From IMG/VR virus record IMGVR_UViG_2675903661_000003: a stretch of DNA of 8,213 nt, one strand, 5' to 3'. This DNA is from a virus. Taxonomy: Duplodnaviria > Heunggongvirae > Uroviricota > Caudoviricetes. The notes below the pieces were generated by a model. It saw only the letters and a list, made by a program, of their open reading frames with translations, made no database searches and was not told the DNA's origin. Positions 2,850 to 8,213 of the stretch are shown piece after piece (within the stretch, counting starts at the first letter, position 1; the number at the start of each line of letters is the position of its first letter). A program made the position numbers and the translations under genes.

Positions 2850-3416
2850 TCAATCCGTCTTTGTGATTTTTCCTTTGCCTGTATCAGCCAGGACAAAACC
2901 AATCAGCAGATTCGCTTCGTTTATCAACGTGCGAATTTTTGATACATGCGCGGCTTTAACCAGTTTCCATTCGTTTAACCCTGTACCAAACAGACTGGCA
3001 ATATTTTTATCCCGTTTCATGTCAGCGCATGCCTGGTTGAGTTCTTCCATCACGCTCATTTGACGAGGATTAACGACAAAACCCTTCGTCCAGTATTCAT
3101 AGAGAACATCGTCGCACTCTTCCTGATACTGGATAACCTTGTCGCGGATTCCGGGTTTTACTTTGTTGGGATTGATGGTTTGTAACCAGCCTGCAAGTTT
3201 TCGAAGTGGCAGGGACACCATATTGCGTCGTTTCCCGTCCTCAGCAACCATAACGATTTCCGTTATAGTTGACGCAAAACGCTGTCTTAACTTAGCCAAC
3301 TGTGATTGCCAGGCCAGCCCCATCCCCGCAACGACAGGTTTGGGAACGTATGGTTCGCCGTTATGGTTAACCACATAAAGAGAATCGCCGTGAAACGGCA
3401 CGGTTATCATATTCAT
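2850..3416 (-). CDS. Phage antirepressor-like protein (P22 AR N-terminal-domain-like)
   Basis: N-terminus MNMITVPFHGDSLYVVNHNGEPYVPKPVVAGMGLAW resembles the conserved start of P22_AR_N antirepressor-family proteins as I recall them. AAAGGAAA RBS about 7 nt upstream of the ATG at 3416. Family assignment unverified. Confidence 0.55.
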   Translation of the reverse strand: MNMITVPFHGDSLYVVNHNGEPYVPKPVVAGMGLAWQSQLAKLRQRFASTITEIVMVAEDGKRRNMVSLPLRKLAGWLQTINPNKVKPGIRDKVIQYQEECDDVLYEYWTKGFVVNPRQMSVMEELNQACADMKRDKNIASLFGTGLNEWKLVKAAHVSKIRTLINEANLLIGFVLADTGKGKITKTD

Positions 3417-3690: not shown

Positions 3691-4224
3691 TTATCTGTCG
3701 ATACCCCAGCACGCCAGCGCGCTCTCCTGGTCACGACGGGATACCTGACCATAACAATTATTTGAGCGGATACGGCAGTCCCTGCCACCGTCCTTAATCC
3801 ACCAGCGAATCGCTTCACACGCTCCCCTGCGATCGCCTGCATTAATTCGTTTATAAAACGTCGACGGGAAACACTTACCGGGGCCAATGTTATACGGGCA
3901 GAATGACGCGATCCCCGCTTTCTGGGGTTCAGTCAGTGGCACCCGGATGTTTTTCTCCACCCATGCCAGCGCCTTATCACGCTCAATGGCGTTAACCTGG
4001 TCGCATTTTTTCTTCGACAACTTCATGCCCGGGACGACAGGTTTGCCATCCACCCTGGTGGCACCACGACAAATGGTCCAGATACCCGCACCATCACGGT
4101 ATGCCGTGGTGTGGTTACCTTCTTTTTCATCCAGAAACTGGTCGAGAATATCAGGCGCAGGCGCCCCTGCGGCAATCAGCGCCAGAACGGCAGCCGACAG
4201 GCCGTATTTGATTTTGGTGTTCAT
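3691..4224 (-). CDS. R: GH24 (T4-lysozyme-like) endolysin with N-terminal SAR or signal sequence
   Basis: Catalytic E-x8-D-x5-T triad within EGNHTTAYRDGAGIWTICRGAT. N-terminal Gly/Ala-rich hydrophobic stretch YGLSAAVLALIAAGAPA is typical of signal-anchor-release endolysins that pair with pinholins. Weak RBS. Confidence 0.88.
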   Translation of the reverse strand: MNTKIKYGLSAAVLALIAAGAPAPDILDQFLDEKEGNHTTAYRDGAGIWTICRGATRVDGKPVVPGMKLSKKKCDQVNAIERDKALAWVEKNIRVPLTEPQKAGIASFCPYNIGPGKCFPSTFYKRINAGDRRGACEAIRWWIKDGGRDCRIRSNNCYGQVSRRDQESALACWGIDR

Positions 4225-4278
4225 GGATATTTATCAGGATTTATCGGTTCCGAATCCCTGGATATGTTAAGCCTTCAC

Positions 4279-4293
4279 CCCACCAGTGGTGGG
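4279..4293. promoter_or_regulatory. Palindromic operator-like site CCCACCA-G-TGGTGGG in the divergent intergenic region
   Basis: Perfect 7-bp inverted-repeat arms around a single central nucleotide, lying between the endolysin start (4224, minus) and the plus ORF start (4355). Confidence 0.2.
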
Positions 4294-4354
4294 CACTGGC
4301 GGGTTCTTAATTTCCCCGGATGATCGTGGATTACATTCCACCAGGAGATTACTT

Positions 4355-4987
4355 ATGCTTATCTATCCAGCGGCAGACCTCCGTTTACAGGGACGCAGAG
4401 CACAACCATGGGATAAAACAACCACTCATAAATATCGTCCCGGTCAATATTATGACTTTCGTAAACACCCGGAACTGATCGAGACACACCTTGAGGATTT
4501 TGTTGAATATTCAGACAGACAAGCGATTCAGACCTTTTTTTCTTTTGTTAAGTGGATCAACAGCAATTCATCTGCATTCGAGAGCACGGACTGCATGTTT
4601 TCAGGAACACCAAAGGTTGATGAATACGCCCCGGTATTTGGTTGCACCCATGCGTCATCTGGCCGCTTCGAATTTTTGTTTCGCGATACGAAAATAAACC
4701 AAAATGAGCGAGCTGTCGGATGGGTACTTAACAAACTATCGCTCTACCTTCAGAAAGAACGGCCCGATTTTTGTAAAGGAACCTTTGGCATCGTTCCCCT
4801 CATGACGGAATATACCGACTCCGGCGGTAACGAGTTCACCGGTTATCGTATTTGTGTCTATTTCGATGCTTACGGGAATGGAACAGAGGATACCTGGACT
4901 TCTCTCAACATCATGTTTGATGGCCTCATGAAAGCCACCAAAAGAATGAGCAATGAAACAATCACTGGCGAGATGCGTCCCCTTTAA
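4355..4987 (+). CDS. Hypothetical protein (210 aa), unknown function, opposite strand to the late operon
   Basis: ATG at 4355 with AGGAGA 6 nt upstream; the track ORF begins earlier at 4286 with no convincing start. It is the only long frame across 4355-4735. No TM segment and no motif I can name. A hairpin plus T8 lies about 100 nt downstream. Visibly more AT-rich than flanking phage genes. Confidence 0.5.
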   Translation: MLIYPAADLRLQGRRAQPWDKTTTHKYRPGQYYDFRKHPELIETHLEDFVEYSDRQAIQTFFSFVKWINSNSSAFESTDCMFSGTPKVDEYAPVFGCTHASSGRFEFLFRDTKINQNERAVGWVLNKLSLYLQKERPDFCKGTFGIVPLMTEYTDSGGNEFTGYRICVYFDAYGNGTEDTWTSLNIMFDGLMKATKRMSNETITGEMRPL

Positions 4988-5527
4988 AAAATTATCCAGA
5001 ATCTCACTATTTGCAGAGCGCTCTCTGTTTTTTTGAATACGGAAACACTCTGCGAGATTTCTGCTCATCACTTTCCGGCAATAATCGTAAAACGCCGCGA
5101 ACTGCTCATCACGGCGTTTTTTTTCACCTTCGGAAGGGATCTGCACCGACAGTTTTTTATTCAGTTCAACGACGCTGTTCTCCAGTTTTTCAATGCGTGA
5201 TTCGATATCATCTTTTTCTGACTGTATCGTGTTATATGCATTGTTAATTTGTATGGTATACCGCTCTTCTGAACAGAGGCGCTTTTCCGGCAACGGTTCG
5301 TTCCCTTCACATAACCCGGCAGCAATATCCATGAAAAACTGCTTCGCCTTCTTTTTCGCCTCAGCTTCGTAAAACTCCAGCGGGGCACCTTCAACACGAT
5401 CAAGATCAATCACCACATTTGGCAACAACAGTGACGTATACCCACCAGTTTCCAGCGCCACAGTAACAGTAATCTTATCCGGGTAAATATTTATCCCTTT
5501 AACAACCAGTTCGTATTGTTTATTCAT
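4736..5527 (-). CDS. Hypothetical protein (263 aa) with a central coiled-coil-like segment, immediately downstream of the holin
   Basis: ATG at 5527 lies 3 nt after the holin stop, with GGGAGAG upstream. It is the only long frame across 4988-5527. Contains a heptad-like segment IQSEKDDIESRIEKLENSVVELNKKL. The last 252 nt overlap the plus ORF antiparallel, so the true 3' end is uncertain. Confidence 0.5.
   Translation of the reverse strand: MNKQYELVVKGINIYPDKITVTVALETGGYTSLLLPNVVIDLDRVEGAPLEFYEAEAKKKAKQFFMDIAAGLCEGNEPLPEKRLCSEERYTIQINNAYNTIQSEKDDIESRIEKLENSVVELNKKLSVQIPSEGEKKRRDEQFAAFYDYCRKVMSRNLAECFRIQKNRERSANSEILDNFLKGTHLASDCFIAHSFGGFHEAIKHDVERSPGILCSIPVSIEIDTNTITGELVTAGVGIFRHEGNDAKGSFTKIGPFFLKVER
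5089..5124 (+). terminator. Candidate intrinsic terminator (hairpin plus T8) downstream of the plus ORF, inside the minus ORF
   Basis: AAAACGCCG, a loop of about 14 nt, then CGGCGTTTTTTTT. The A-tract on the other side gives a weaker reverse-orientation terminator. The loop is longer than canonical. Confidence 0.4.
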
Positions 5528-5530
5528 CGT

Positions 5531-5746
5531 CTACTCTCCCCGCGCCGCCTTACGCCGGTCTTCTTTAATTTTGAAATACAGGTTCGTCAGATATGTCAGC
5601 AGCCCAAACAGCAGACTCCCCAGCACGCCTATTGCCGCCCACTGAGACGGGGAAACCCTGTCCAGCAACTGCAGGAACCAGTAGCCCGTTCCCACCGCTG
5701 ACGTGGTGTATGACACACCTGTTGTGATTTTTTCCATCTGGTACAT
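5531..5746 (-). CDS. S: Class II holin / pinholin of the phage 21 S type, with dual-start motif
   Basis: [71 protein letters not shown] matches the S21 pinholin as I recall it. Two Met codons three codons apart (5746 and 5737) give the antiholin/holin dual start. The track start at 5764 is GTG. Confidence 0.85.
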
Positions 5747-5821
5747 ACCCCGTCTCCCGCACACGGAAGCTCACAACATGAAAAAGGCCAGCAGTACTTT
5801 ACTGATGGCCCTGACTCACCC

Positions 5822-6106
5822 TTACAGCATGGTGCCCGGTTCAGGTTGTGCTTCAGTCGCATCAACCACCGGTGATTCCGGTTGAATATCGCCGTTTTCT
5901 GAGGTGATATCTTCCGGTTGCGGTTCCGGCTCTGGCTGTTCGCCTGGCTGCTCTCCCAGTATCGTATCCAGAATCGCATCCACATCTGCTTCTATCTGCG
6001 CTTCAAATGTCTGGCGGACTTTCTGTTTCAGTGCTCCACGCACATCTTCTGAGCGCAGCGCGTCTTTCACTGCATCAGCAGTGACCAGGGGTTTTACTTC
6101 TGACAT
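5822..6106 (-). CDS. Hypothetical acidic protein (94 aa) with a Pro/Glu-rich tail
   Basis: ATG at 6106 (MSEVKPLVTADAVKDALRSEDVRGALKQ...). The longer track ORF from 6268 is GTG-initiated and would overlap the neighbouring ORF. C-terminal low-complexity EQPGEQPEPEPQPEDITSENGDIQPESP. Weak RBS. Confidence 0.45.
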   Translation of the reverse strand: MSEVKPLVTADAVKDALRSEDVRGALKQKVRQTFEAQIEADVDAILDTILGEQPGEQPEPEPQPEDITSENGDIQPESPVVDATEAQPEPGTML

Positions 6107-6131
6107 AGGGTTTTCTCGTTGAAAGGGGTTG

Positions 6132-6314
6132 TTAAGGAGTAATGGGCTCTTCGGGTTTGCTTCCGGCTGACTGACTGGCGCTGATTTTCTCAGCGGCCCT
6201 TTTATCAATCTGCCTGCGCCAGCAATCGCGCACTGCCCTGTACCCACCCGAAAGAAGATACAGCACACAGACCACCGTACAGAAGTACAGCATTAACTGG
6301 TTCAGAAATGTCAT
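6132..6314 (-). CDS. Small putative membrane protein (60 aa)
   Basis: ATG at 6314 with GGTGAGA upstream. A single predicted TM helix LMLYFCTVVCVLYLLSGG followed by a basic region. It conflicts with the GTG-extended version of the 5822 ORF, which is why the ATG-94-aa model was preferred there. Confidence 0.4.
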   Translation of the reverse strand: MTFLNQLMLYFCTVVCVLYLLSGGYRAVRDCWRRQIDKRAAEKISASQSAGSKPEEPITP

Positions 6315-6464: not shown

Positions 6465-8213
6465 TCATGCCGCGGCATCCGCGTTGTTCACTTCCACCTT
6501 CACACTGTCAATCAGCAACGTATATGTCGCCGCCTTTGATATGTCTGTCAGTTGCAGTTTGTCCGCCGCCCCTGATGCCGGAGATTTCACCAGTGTGAAC
6601 GGTGTACCCCGTTTCTCATCCAGTACCGGCGTCACCTGAATGCTGTTGTTTCCGGCAAACTCAAAAGCCAGTGTGTGCCATCCGTTATCAAAGACCCCGA
6701 ACGTATCCAGCTTCGCATTCTGCTTCTTGTGGTACATCGCGTTCAGGTTCGTCGCATCCGTCTGCAGGAAGAAGGACATCAGCATGTCGTTGCCTTCCTC
6801 TGACAGCGTCACTCCCTCCGGCAGGGACGACAACTGCCAGTAAATACCCAGGGCAAACTGATTCGGCACCAGTGCGCCCGGCACCTTAAACCGTACGCTC
6901 ACACGTCCGCCTTTCTTCAGCAACTCTGCCCCCTGCCCGGCGGCATCATGCTCCAGAAACCAGATGTGGCTTTCCGGTTTGTTCAGTTGCAGGGCCTTAC
7001 CACCGGTGGCACCCTCATCACTGACCACAGCCTCAGCGATGTTTTTATTAACACTGTCTCCGCTCGCCGGTTTGTGATAATAGCGCCAGCCCTGTGATGC
7101 CAGGTCTTCGCCGGACGCCAGCAGACTCATCAGGGTTCGGTTACTGACCGGGGCTTCCGGCTCTCTCTCCGGGCCTTCACCGGAAGGTCCGGTGGGCTTC
7201 ACCGTATCAGGCTGTTTTCCGGTAATGAATTCAGCGGTTCTCCCGGCATGCACCAGAATCGCCGTTGCCAGACGGTCGGAAATAATCCCACGGCGAGCCC
7301 ATGAACTGAAATGGCTGGCCCTGTCTGCTGATGTCCAGGTCTTCTGGTCATTACGCCACTTTGAACCGTAATAACCGACGGTTTCCAGGTCCGGGTCTTC
7401 TGCCGGGTTATTGGTCTGCACATTCGCACCATTCTCATCCGTCATTAACGGTACAAAGAAAATGTTCTGCGACTCCTTCCCCTTATACCCTCCGTATACT
7501 GATGCATACCCTTCCGCATGACGCTGCTTCCAGAAATACGTTGTGTCCCCGCAAATCCACGGTACCGCTGATGCGCTGCCTCCTGTGCTCTGTGATGCCT
7601 GACCGGCAAGCTCCGTTCTGAACTGATTCACCATCGCACTAAACAGCCCCGGATGCTGCGCATGCGTCCCCACTGCCGCATCACCTTCTCCCTGCATCCA
7701 CACCACCGCAAGCAGACGGTTTTTCGGGTTCTTCGCCAGTGCGGCTTTAGTCCGGCTCACCAAATCCTGATACAGCGGCTTACCCACACCCCAGCGCAGT
7801 GAATTTTCCGATGCACCGGCTGATTCGCTGTATGTGCCGTCTGCACCCGTTGTGAATGCCGAAGCACCACGGCAGCACGGAACCAGCAGAATGCCCGCAT
7901 TCGCCGGTATAAACGGCAGCAGTTTTTTGGCGATATGCAGCCCCTGCCCCACGGTTCCGTACTGCCCCTTTGACAGGTCCGCTTTCGGATGGTTAAGACG
8001 GCTCATGTCCTGCACATCATGCAGACAATGGTCCGCCGGAATAATGTCGTTATACTTACAGGCGGCACCGCCCGGTGTCACCGTACTGCGGCGCGCCAGC
8101 TGCTTAATACGCGGGTCCGGACGGTCATATGTCTCCGGCAGCGGAAGGCCTTCACCATACGACATGCCGTTTGACTGCCCTGCCAGAACCACAACAAAGT
8201 AATACTCCGGGTC
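6465..8213 (-). CDS. nanS: NanS-p-like 9-O-acetyl sialic acid esterase (SGNH/SASA-type hydrolase), 5' end truncated by the window edge
   Basis: VVLAGQSNG is a block-I SGNH-hydrolase motif. The frame stays open upstream of the track's GTG at 8192 to the window end (DPEYYFVVVLAGQSN), so the N-terminus lies outside the window. Size, motif and position just upstream of the holin fit the prophage esterases of Stx-type lambdoid phages as I recall them. Confidence 0.75.
   Translation of the reverse strand, partial: DPEYYFVVVLAGQSNGMSYGEGLPLPETYDRPDPRIKQLARRSTVTPGGAACKYNDIIPADHCLHDVQDMSRLNHPKADLSKGQYGTVGQGLHIAKKLLPFIPANAGILLVPCCRGASAFTTGADGTYSESAGASENSLRWGVGKPLYQDLVSRTKAALAKNPKNRLLAVVWMQGEGDAAVGTHAQHPGLFSAMVNQFRTELAGQASQSTGGSASAVPWICGDTTYFWKQRHAEGYASVYGGYKGKESQNIFFVPLMTDENGANVQTNNPAEDPDLETVGYYGSKWRNDQKTWTSADRASHFSSWARRGIISDRLATAILVHAGRTAEFITGKQPDTVKPTGPSGEGPEREPEAPVSNRTLMSLLASGEDLASQGWRYYHKPASGDSVNKNIAEAVVSDEGATGGKALQLNKPESHIWFLEHDAAGQGAELLKKGGRVSVRFKVPGALVPNQFALGIYWQLSSLPEGVTLSEEGNDMLMSFFLQTDATNLNAMYHKKQNAKLDTFGVFDNGWHTLAFEFAGNNSIQVTPVLDEKRGTPFTLVKSPASGAADKLQLTDISKAATYTLLIDSVKVEVNNADAAA

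Follow-up and report, generated by a model that had tools for sequence, protein, structure and literature searches.

The question raised by the virus record IMGVR_UViG_2675903661_000003 of IMG/VR (Caudoviricetes), of which a stretch of 8,213 nt was analysed and is called the window here, is what occupies the DNA between its holin gene (S) and its endolysin gene (R) and how it came to lie there. This interval covers 4225–5530 (1306 nt) and contains two convergent open reading frames (ORFs). One is an ORF of 263 amino acids (aa) on the − strand (4736–5527), which begins 3 nt past the holin stop (TAG-ACG-ATG), and the other is an ORF of 210 aa on the + strand (4355–4987), named T, which has the Shine-Dalgarno (SD) sequence AGGAG at 4343–4347, 7 nt before its ATG. 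An earlier note on this DNA had given this layout correctly, with a gap of about 1.3 kb, the 3-nt spacing and the strong ribosome-binding site on the opposite strand, and had taken the two ORFs together for a horizontally acquired insert. It had overlooked that the ORFs overlap by 252 nt (4736–4987), that the 263-aa ORF has a DUF1327 N-terminus, and that phage-21-type cassettes of E. coli prophages usually have a gene, ydfR, between S and R. We found that the cargo proposal holds for the 210-aa gene and not for the 263-aa ORF, which is better explained as the resident ydfR fused to N, a conserved antisense ORF nested in T. This architecture, a ydfR–N fusion and a cassette carrying T and N, is considered highly probable.

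The earlier note had recognised neither protein, and this was right for T and wrong for the − strand ORF. The first 96 aa of the latter (5240–5527, −) matched the DUF1327 (YdfR) domain (Pfam PF07041, E 7.5e-34, 116.3 bits; gathering score 25), and its homology to PHROG families covered aa 1–168 (phrog_2091) and aa 1–171 (phrog_1085), with none further on. The ORF is made up of the DUF1327 domain (aa 1–96), a coiled-coil-like region to about aa 170, a linker of about 10 aa and N (aa 181–263). The C-terminus and stop codon that are typical of the family, whose forms have 103–183 aa, are absent: the frame stays open past aa 168–171 and continues into a tail that lies antisense to T. An inverted repeat with A/T runs at its sides (AAAACGCCGCGA / TCACGGCGTTTT, 5089–5120) was noticed inside the coiled region of the long ydfR; it resembles a bidirectional terminator, yet it lies within coding sequence.

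The position of this ORF is also that of ydfR. In the Qin prophage of Escherichia coli K-12, essQ, ydfR (103 aa) and rrrQ are contiguous, with ydfR between the holin and lysozyme genes, and ydfR of O157:H7 (114-aa product) is likewise placed; the order S-ORF263-R of the window matches both. Furthermore, the first 250 nt of ydfR were found in 1401 of 5426 complete E. coli genomes, so S and R cannot be taken as neighbours by default in E. coli prophages, as the earlier note had assumed. The YdfR proteins of K-12 Qin and of the Shiga toxin (Stx) phages share the N-terminal 96 aa of PF07041, a start 3–4 nt after the stop of a class II holin gene and a place upstream of the lysozyme gene; they differ in length, as the 103 aa of K-12 and 114 aa of O157 stand against 263 aa here, with a long coiled region and a tail antisense to another gene. 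Residues 1–72 of K-12 YdfR bind RNase E at its catalytic domain, and the protein possibly binds RNA (PMC13232886); in the functional literature on YdfR nothing was found beyond that interaction screen. Judged from these matches and this gene order, the 263-aa ORF is the resident lysis-cassette gene ydfR in its long form, not cargo, fused to N.

The insertion of two independent cargo genes between S and R, for example a toxin/antitoxin or abortive-infection (Abi) pair, would account for two long ORFs with good start contexts in an AT-rich interval. The low GC content was confirmed but found to be modest: it is 44.4% in 4301–5077, against 50.1% in the whole window, 54.7% in R and 55.6% in S, and the 5' part of ydfR, at 43.6%, is as AT-rich as that segment. 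The model is refuted for the whole 263-aa ORF, because the first 170 aa or so of this ORF are the resident YdfR/DUF1327 protein, which lies between S and R, without T, in K-12 and O157 as well and whose 5' end is found in about a quarter of complete E. coli genomes. In addition, the DNA breakpoints described below fall within ydfR and not at its ends. Two cargo genes inserted together are therefore a highly improbable explanation.

The S–R junctions of related phages were compared with the window, and the expectation that this site is variable was borne out. With PhiR12_1, blastn placed the breakpoints such that 303 nt stand in place of window 4301–5077, a segment that holds the 5' untranslated region of T, T with N, and the divergent 3' end of the long ydfR. 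With phage 86, 931 nt replace window 4302–5277 and bring another + strand ORF and another YdfR C-terminus, and in an Stx2a phage, 48 nt stand in place of the DUF1327 domain (5169–5522) while the remainder is kept. The 3' end of ydfR is, on these alignments, replaced by the mobile cassette carrying T. The window and the Stx2a phage L002 are 100% identical over 4091–5088, while just outside there are 24 differences in R and 11 in ydfR; the same segment is thus shared by an Stx1 and an Stx2 phage with different flanks, which indicates that the cassette was exchanged horizontally and recently. Of the 5426 complete E. coli genomes, 119 carry the full insert, and among 50,697 phage records it turned up in 8, each from an Stx phage.

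Different small + strand ORFs of 86 and 104 aa, with no Pfam match, are present at this site in PhiR12_1 (L003, 2612–2872, +) and phage 86 (L004, 2629–2943, +), where they follow the leader that stands ahead of T in the window. This leader, the 75 nt from the R start codon up to the left breakpoint (4225–4300), is common to the three phages. One leader is thus shared by alternative downstream ORFs, for which reason the site looks like a cargo slot, and the comparison suggests alternative cargo genes under one common upstream region.

T itself was found to be a real gene, because it has full-length homologues and many clusters of relatives, is under purifying selection and gives a confident structural model. 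Full-length homologues with 53–65% identity are present in Salmonella and in metagenomes. When 1.84 billion representative sequences were searched with a profile, 251 clusters passed E ≤ 1e-3 and 183 passed E ≤ 1e-10, with a length of 200–215 aa in nearly every case, and the nonsynonymous diversity (pN) of 0.2–0.34 against a saturated synonymous diversity (pS) of 0.7–0.86 showed purifying selection. About 16 residues are near-invariant among 109 members (R15, P18, P39, I42, L46, E47, D48, F61, N69, E76, D79, R104, R110, N115, G163 and G174). The AlphaFold2 model had a mean local confidence (pLDDT) of 95.4 and a predicted template-modelling score (pTM) of 0.91, and a cytoplasmic alpha/beta protein is predicted. 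The family has no name: T had no match in Pfam (E ≤ 10), PHROGs, NCBIfam or PADLOC, no Pfam family covered the protein when the 109 members were searched, a sequence profile search of the PDB gave no match, and a Foldseek search of BFVD with the model reached a TM score of at most 0.36. The profile searches advised in the earlier note placed the 263-aa ORF in PF07041; together with the structure prediction of T, they left T without family or fold relative in the libraries searched. Members occur in E. coli, Salmonella, Hafnia, Symbiopectobacterium, Pseudomonas, Myxococcota, Acidobacteriota, Verrucomicrobia and Leptospirales, and this taxonomic spread argues against a role as an effector specific to animal hosts.

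IMG/VR was found to contain 61 loci that encode relatives of T, and nearly all copies recovered from Gammaproteobacteria were located in prophage late operons. In the Enterobacterales groups B and C, T is inserted between the tail genes I and J (GpJ by Pfam), and in the Pseudomonas group D between the tail genes K and I, and its reading direction is always contrary to that of the tail operon. Group A consists of the window and two Salmonella copies, and its sites have moved elsewhere in the late operon: the S–R junction in the window, the region between Q and the holin gene beside KwaA/KwaB (L008), and a prophage remnant near sodC. At locus L008 (9618–11257), a Salmonella P22-like prophage, the Kiwa genes (KwaA, KwaB) lie in the same Q-to-holin interval as the T copy. 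Four kinds of sites are thus known at which T runs counter to the phage genes on either side, namely S–R, Q–holin, tail I/J and tail K/I. Because of these four kinds of opposite-strand sites, the identical cassette with diverged flanks and the presence in 119 of 5426 genomes, we conclude that T is a mobile, AT-rich, horizontally acquired prophage cargo (moron) gene in Gammaproteobacteria. Tail-assembly-interference (Tai) systems were considered as an identity for T and rejected, since they lie upstream of the packaging module and have no link to T.

Clustering by blastp of the flanking ORFs of 28 homologue loci and the window gave no conserved partner of T outside closely related genomes, and the environmental homologues are single genes in unrelated neighbourhoods. 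At one locus on a Myxococcota-type contig, a 383-aa gene of the exonuclease–endonuclease–phosphatase family (Exo_endo_phos; L016, 4853–6004) shares 4 nt with the beginning of the T homologue; this possible operon partner did not recur in other T loci.

The second question raised by the locus is why the − strand ORF runs 252 nt into T. These 252 nt (4736–4987, −) are the codon-aligned antisense of the last 83 codons of T and are named N. In most relatives of the window N is a separate gene of 89–107 aa with its own SD and ATG, runs in the direction of the late operon and ends GPFYL. In the window it ends ...KIGPFFLKVER; at the place of the start codon the sequence is ...SEILDNF, without an ATG, and N forms the C-terminal tail of the 263-aa ORF. 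The long overlap arises because N has lost its start and is in frame with a long ydfR that has no stop at about aa 170.

Counted from the T stop, 81–97 codons of the N frame were found to be free of stops in all but one of the 39 unique T genes of groups A–D (38 of 39), with the same end throughout. Shuffling synonymous Leu and Ser codons within each gene gave P values of 0.0004–0.05 for this openness in most low-GC copies, and antisense stop-free runs in the neighbouring tail genes I, K and L, used as a control, had medians of 9–43 codons (range 1–222). In groups B, C and D, N has an ATG 3–12 codons beyond the T stop, and an SD-like tetramer precedes it in 22 of 24 distinct contexts.

The substitution patterns point in the same direction. 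Third-position diversity of T drops in the T/N overlap within three groups (from 0.48 to 0.32, from 0.40 to 0.30 and from 0.54 to 0.38); second-position diversity also drops in all three, being roughly halved in B and D, and the first position shows no drop. The pN/pS ratio of the antisense frame is 1.2–1.27 in the first 127 codons, taken as control, against 0.60–0.83 in the overlap, and the sense ratio is slightly higher in the overlap. Both signs of dual coding, namely constraint at sense-synonymous sites and purifying selection in the second frame, were found within groups B, C and D. N is best conserved at its C-terminus GPFYL, opposite which the sense codons GTA-GAA-NGG-CCC are frozen at their third positions, and the changes seen there (GTA/ATA, AGG/CGG and CAG/CAA) are synonymous for N even when they alter T; in the window T has a K where others have V or I, and N changes merely from Y to F. 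The T motif LQxER, which lies opposite GPFYL, is conserved solely in the clade with N and not in the wider T family.

N also occurs as a gene in other arrangements. In the E. coli loci L105 and L106 it stands by itself as a 104-aa gene that begins 4 nt past an S21 holin gene, and other E. coli carry fusions of the coiled region with N of 161 and 178 aa. At the E. coli locus L103 it is intact between Q and a different holin gene, and the T copy there has an internal deletion of residues 16–96. Gene callers at times report N, as in the 89-aa P0286 of Enterobacter asburiae, and a search with N returned just 21 clusters, which are candidate nested copies. The environmental T homologues have no such frame; their open antisense lengths vary between a single codon and the full gene, and GPFYL terminates none of them. 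Since the non-phage homologues are without the frame, N appears to have originated through overprinting within the clade that phages carry.

Another account would make T the sole gene, with the open antisense frame and the reduced synonymous change produced by an RNA or DNA element or by codon bias, and the tail of the 263-aa ORF a meaningless read-through of a truncated ydfR pseudogene. This is how the locus stands in RefSeq, where the annotation pipeline PGAP marks ydfR as a pseudogene "missing C-terminus" and leaves T unannotated, with about 1 kb empty; in GenBank records of Stx phages the 263-aa (or 161-aa) ORF is the sole one annotated here. The account gains from the codon-aligned antisense frame being inherently the likeliest to be open, and from N having no Pfam or PHROG family. 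It does not explain why the N frame closes at one common codon in four groups with an identity of about 40%, why the ATG and SD recur in 22 of 24 contexts within spacers that are otherwise unalignable, or why control genes of the same loci behave differently; nor does it fit the GPFYL substitutions that are silent for N even where T changes (V/I, and K in the window) or the intact N beside an internally deleted T. We regard T as the sole gene as rather improbable.

Several observations weigh against a functional N in the window. Group A, with three sequences, gave an antisense pN/pS of 1.00 in the control and 0.95 in the overlap, so that no dual-coding constraint is demonstrable there, a point which also favours T as the sole gene, and the substitution counts among E. 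coli variants within the group are small. N is broken in the Salmonella locus L005 and has no obvious start in L008, and the in-frame YdfR–N fusion could be a deletion accident rather than a functional protein. With these points included, N is probably a real nested gene, on evidence that is evolutionary and is weakest in the window's own lineage.

The region upstream of T was examined for regulatory signals. A conserved block at 4232–4268 (+) consists of TATCAGGAT, exactly 22 nt, and TATGTT, which is −10-like; it may serve as a promoter or regulatory site. Groups B and C have these blocks (TATGTT or TATGGT) at identical spacing ahead of T, and so do PhiR12_1 and phage 86 at this site. From this conservation, we infer a putative promoter of T. 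The block is followed by a conserved leader hairpin at 4283–4299 (+), CCAGTG-GTGGG-CACTGG, of the general form YCAGYG-GTGGGN-CRCTGR. In eight variants, 97.9% of the cells were paired and one compensatory UA to CG pair was present, 17 of 500 shuffles reached the score, and the G-U pairs suit an RNA of the + strand. The hairpin overlaps the palindrome CCCACCAGTGGTGGG at 4279–4293, which the earlier note had placed at the edge of the insert as operator-like; it lies instead in the conserved 5' leader common to phages with other cargo. As an operator this palindrome is conserved but shows no compensatory change, and the overlapping hairpin explained the eight variants slightly better; as an RNA hairpin of its own form it is excluded by its 1-nt loop. 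Rfam gave no match in 4100–5600.

A weak terminator-like hairpin with a T-run is present at 5013–5038 (+), 26 nt past the T stop and inside the chimeric ORF; one such site was found against 1.8 expected, which is not significant. In versions of the module located in tail operons, a strong terminator-like hairpin, AGCCACC-loop-GGTGGCT with a T-run, lies on the late strand (L067, 4873–4890; L088, 3043–3060, −), just upstream of the J start and just past the T promoter region. It is absent from the S–R version of the window, in which the leader directly adjoins the start codon of R.

What the module does was considered from this arrangement. R needs transcription from the late promoter through the cassette, so late transcripts would be antisense to all of T and would at the same time be the mRNA for N (YdfR::N here). 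In the mechanism proposed, T would be expressed in the lysogen from its own promoter and act as an exclusion or abortive-infection type effector that is kept on there; upon late-operon transcription N would be produced antisense to T, and T would be silenced in lytic growth at the time when N is made, with N as a late-expressed partner, for example a self-immunity or antagonist protein. A role in phage conflict is proposed because T resides in late operons, has a sporadic and recently mobile distribution and adjoins Kiwa at one locus. Taken with the architecture, it forms the explanation that we consider best overall and hold with moderate confidence. The defence-type function of T, with N as its late antagonist or self-immunity partner, is a tentative proposal.

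Against this proposal stand several negative results. The guess of the earlier note that abortive-infection, exclusion or toxin genes are carried here has remained a guess: T and the 263-aa ORF gave no match at E ≤ 0.1 to the defence models of PADLOC-DB v2, and T has no likeness to known defence, toxin or anti-defence families in the libraries searched. The environmental homologues have no conserved partner and no visible defence-island signature, and no sigma-70 consensus promoter was called upstream of T by the scan.

T may instead be a lysogenic-conversion or host-fitness gene, such as an enzyme acting on a small metabolite or nucleotide, with N an unrelated late protein or a regulator of T expression. 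Many of the near-invariant residues are charged (R15, E47, D48, N69, E76, D79, R104, R110 and N115), which resembles the site of an enzyme or of ligand binding, most of the family comes from free-living Myxococcota, Acidobacteriota and Pseudomonas, where the genes have ordinary chromosomal surroundings, and the missing PADLOC match fits as well. The location of nearly all gammaproteobacterial copies in prophage late operons is, on the other hand, typical of conflict or exclusion morons, one copy adjoins Kiwa genes, and sporadic distribution with recent horizontal spread suits conflict genes better than metabolic ones. This possibility is as tentative as the defence function, and a host-fitness enzyme and a phage-conflict module are held to be about equally likely.

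In its most complete form, the phage-conflict reading would make T and N an undescribed two-protein prophage module, with one 250-bp stretch coding for both on its two strands. T would be an effector of new fold, expressed in the lysogen and directed against phages or host defences, and N, overprinted and made only late, would turn T off when its own prophage goes lytic; in the Stx phages N would be fused to the RNase E-binding YdfR. We regard this combination as doubtful.

Three known systems help to place the module. Morons, such as bor and lom of lambda and gp15 of HK97, are independent transcription units inserted in a late operon. T shares with them an insertion between genes that are adjacent in relatives, a deviant composition, its own translation signals and an orientation independent of the late operon. 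It differs in that its promoter is putative and its terminator a weak candidate, its product is predicted to be a cytoplasmic protein rather than one of the membrane or cell surface, and a second gene lies on the opposite strand inside it. As in Rz/Rz1, one conserved gene of the T/N pair lies wholly or largely inside the coding sequence of the other and the two are inherited as a unit, but Rz1 is read from the same strand in the +1 frame, whereas N is on the opposite strand, codon-aligned antisense, with convergent transcription. The prophage defence protein BstA has cognate self-immunity through the DNA element aba inside the bstA gene (PMC8585504). The logic proposed for T and N would be the same by analogy, as a prophage-borne defence factor must spare its own lytic cycle; in BstA self-immunity is conferred by a DNA element and not a protein, and there is no sequence or fold similarity to T or N.

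The window as a whole comes from the late part of a lambdoid prophage of the Stx type, with nearly every gene on the − strand. It holds a lysis cassette of the phage 21 type, with an S21-family holin, a lysozyme like those with signal-anchor-release (SAR) sequences, and an embedded Rz1. The pinholin, a phage-21-type class II holin (5531–5764, −; PF04971, E 9.5e-33), has its TAG stop at 5533–5531; database entries give it shorter starts, at 5746 or 5737, and it is named holin in LC567819 and RefSeq. The SAR-type endolysin R (3691–4224, −; PF00959) has a SAR-like hydrophobic stretch near its N-terminus (YGLSAAVLALIAAGA), recognised by reading the sequence, and Rz (1301–1804, −; PF03245) contains Rz1 (1390–1575, −; PF06085). 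Ahead of the holin gene are a SASA/nanS-p esterase (6465–8192, −), which is first in transcription order, and genes for DUF1378 (6132–6314, −) and DUF826 (5822–6268, −) proteins.

Between R and Rz are a gene for an Ant-like protein (2850–3416, −) and one for a Dam methylase of the D12 class (1813–2580, −; PF02086), the latter placed between the Ant-like gene and Rz within the lysis cassette. The Stx1a phage LC567819, otherwise identical, has just a 147-nt ORF at the methylase position, and the R–Rz interval is therefore read as a second variable cargo slot of the cassette. Downstream of Rz, a 113-aa lipoprotein-like ORF with a TonB C-terminal domain (408–749, −; PF03544) occupies the place where phage 86 has bor. 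A DUF3950 (YnfO-like) ORF lies at the left end (16–276, +), and K-12 Qin likewise has one downstream of its lysis genes.

These findings mean that current annotation misses or misreads the T/N locus. T represents a family of about 250 clusters with a confidently predicted fold, nameless in Pfam and PHROGs and with no structural relative in the libraries searched. T and N together would be a rare and evolutionarily well-supported long antisense overlapping pair, conserved between prophages of Enterobacterales and Pseudomonas and missing from the relatives of T outside phages, and a clean natural case of a gene born by overprinting. In Stx phages the module lies between the genes that time lysis and toxin release, and an effect on lysis timing, on superinfection or, through the YdfR fusion, on RNA decay would, if true, be medically relevant.

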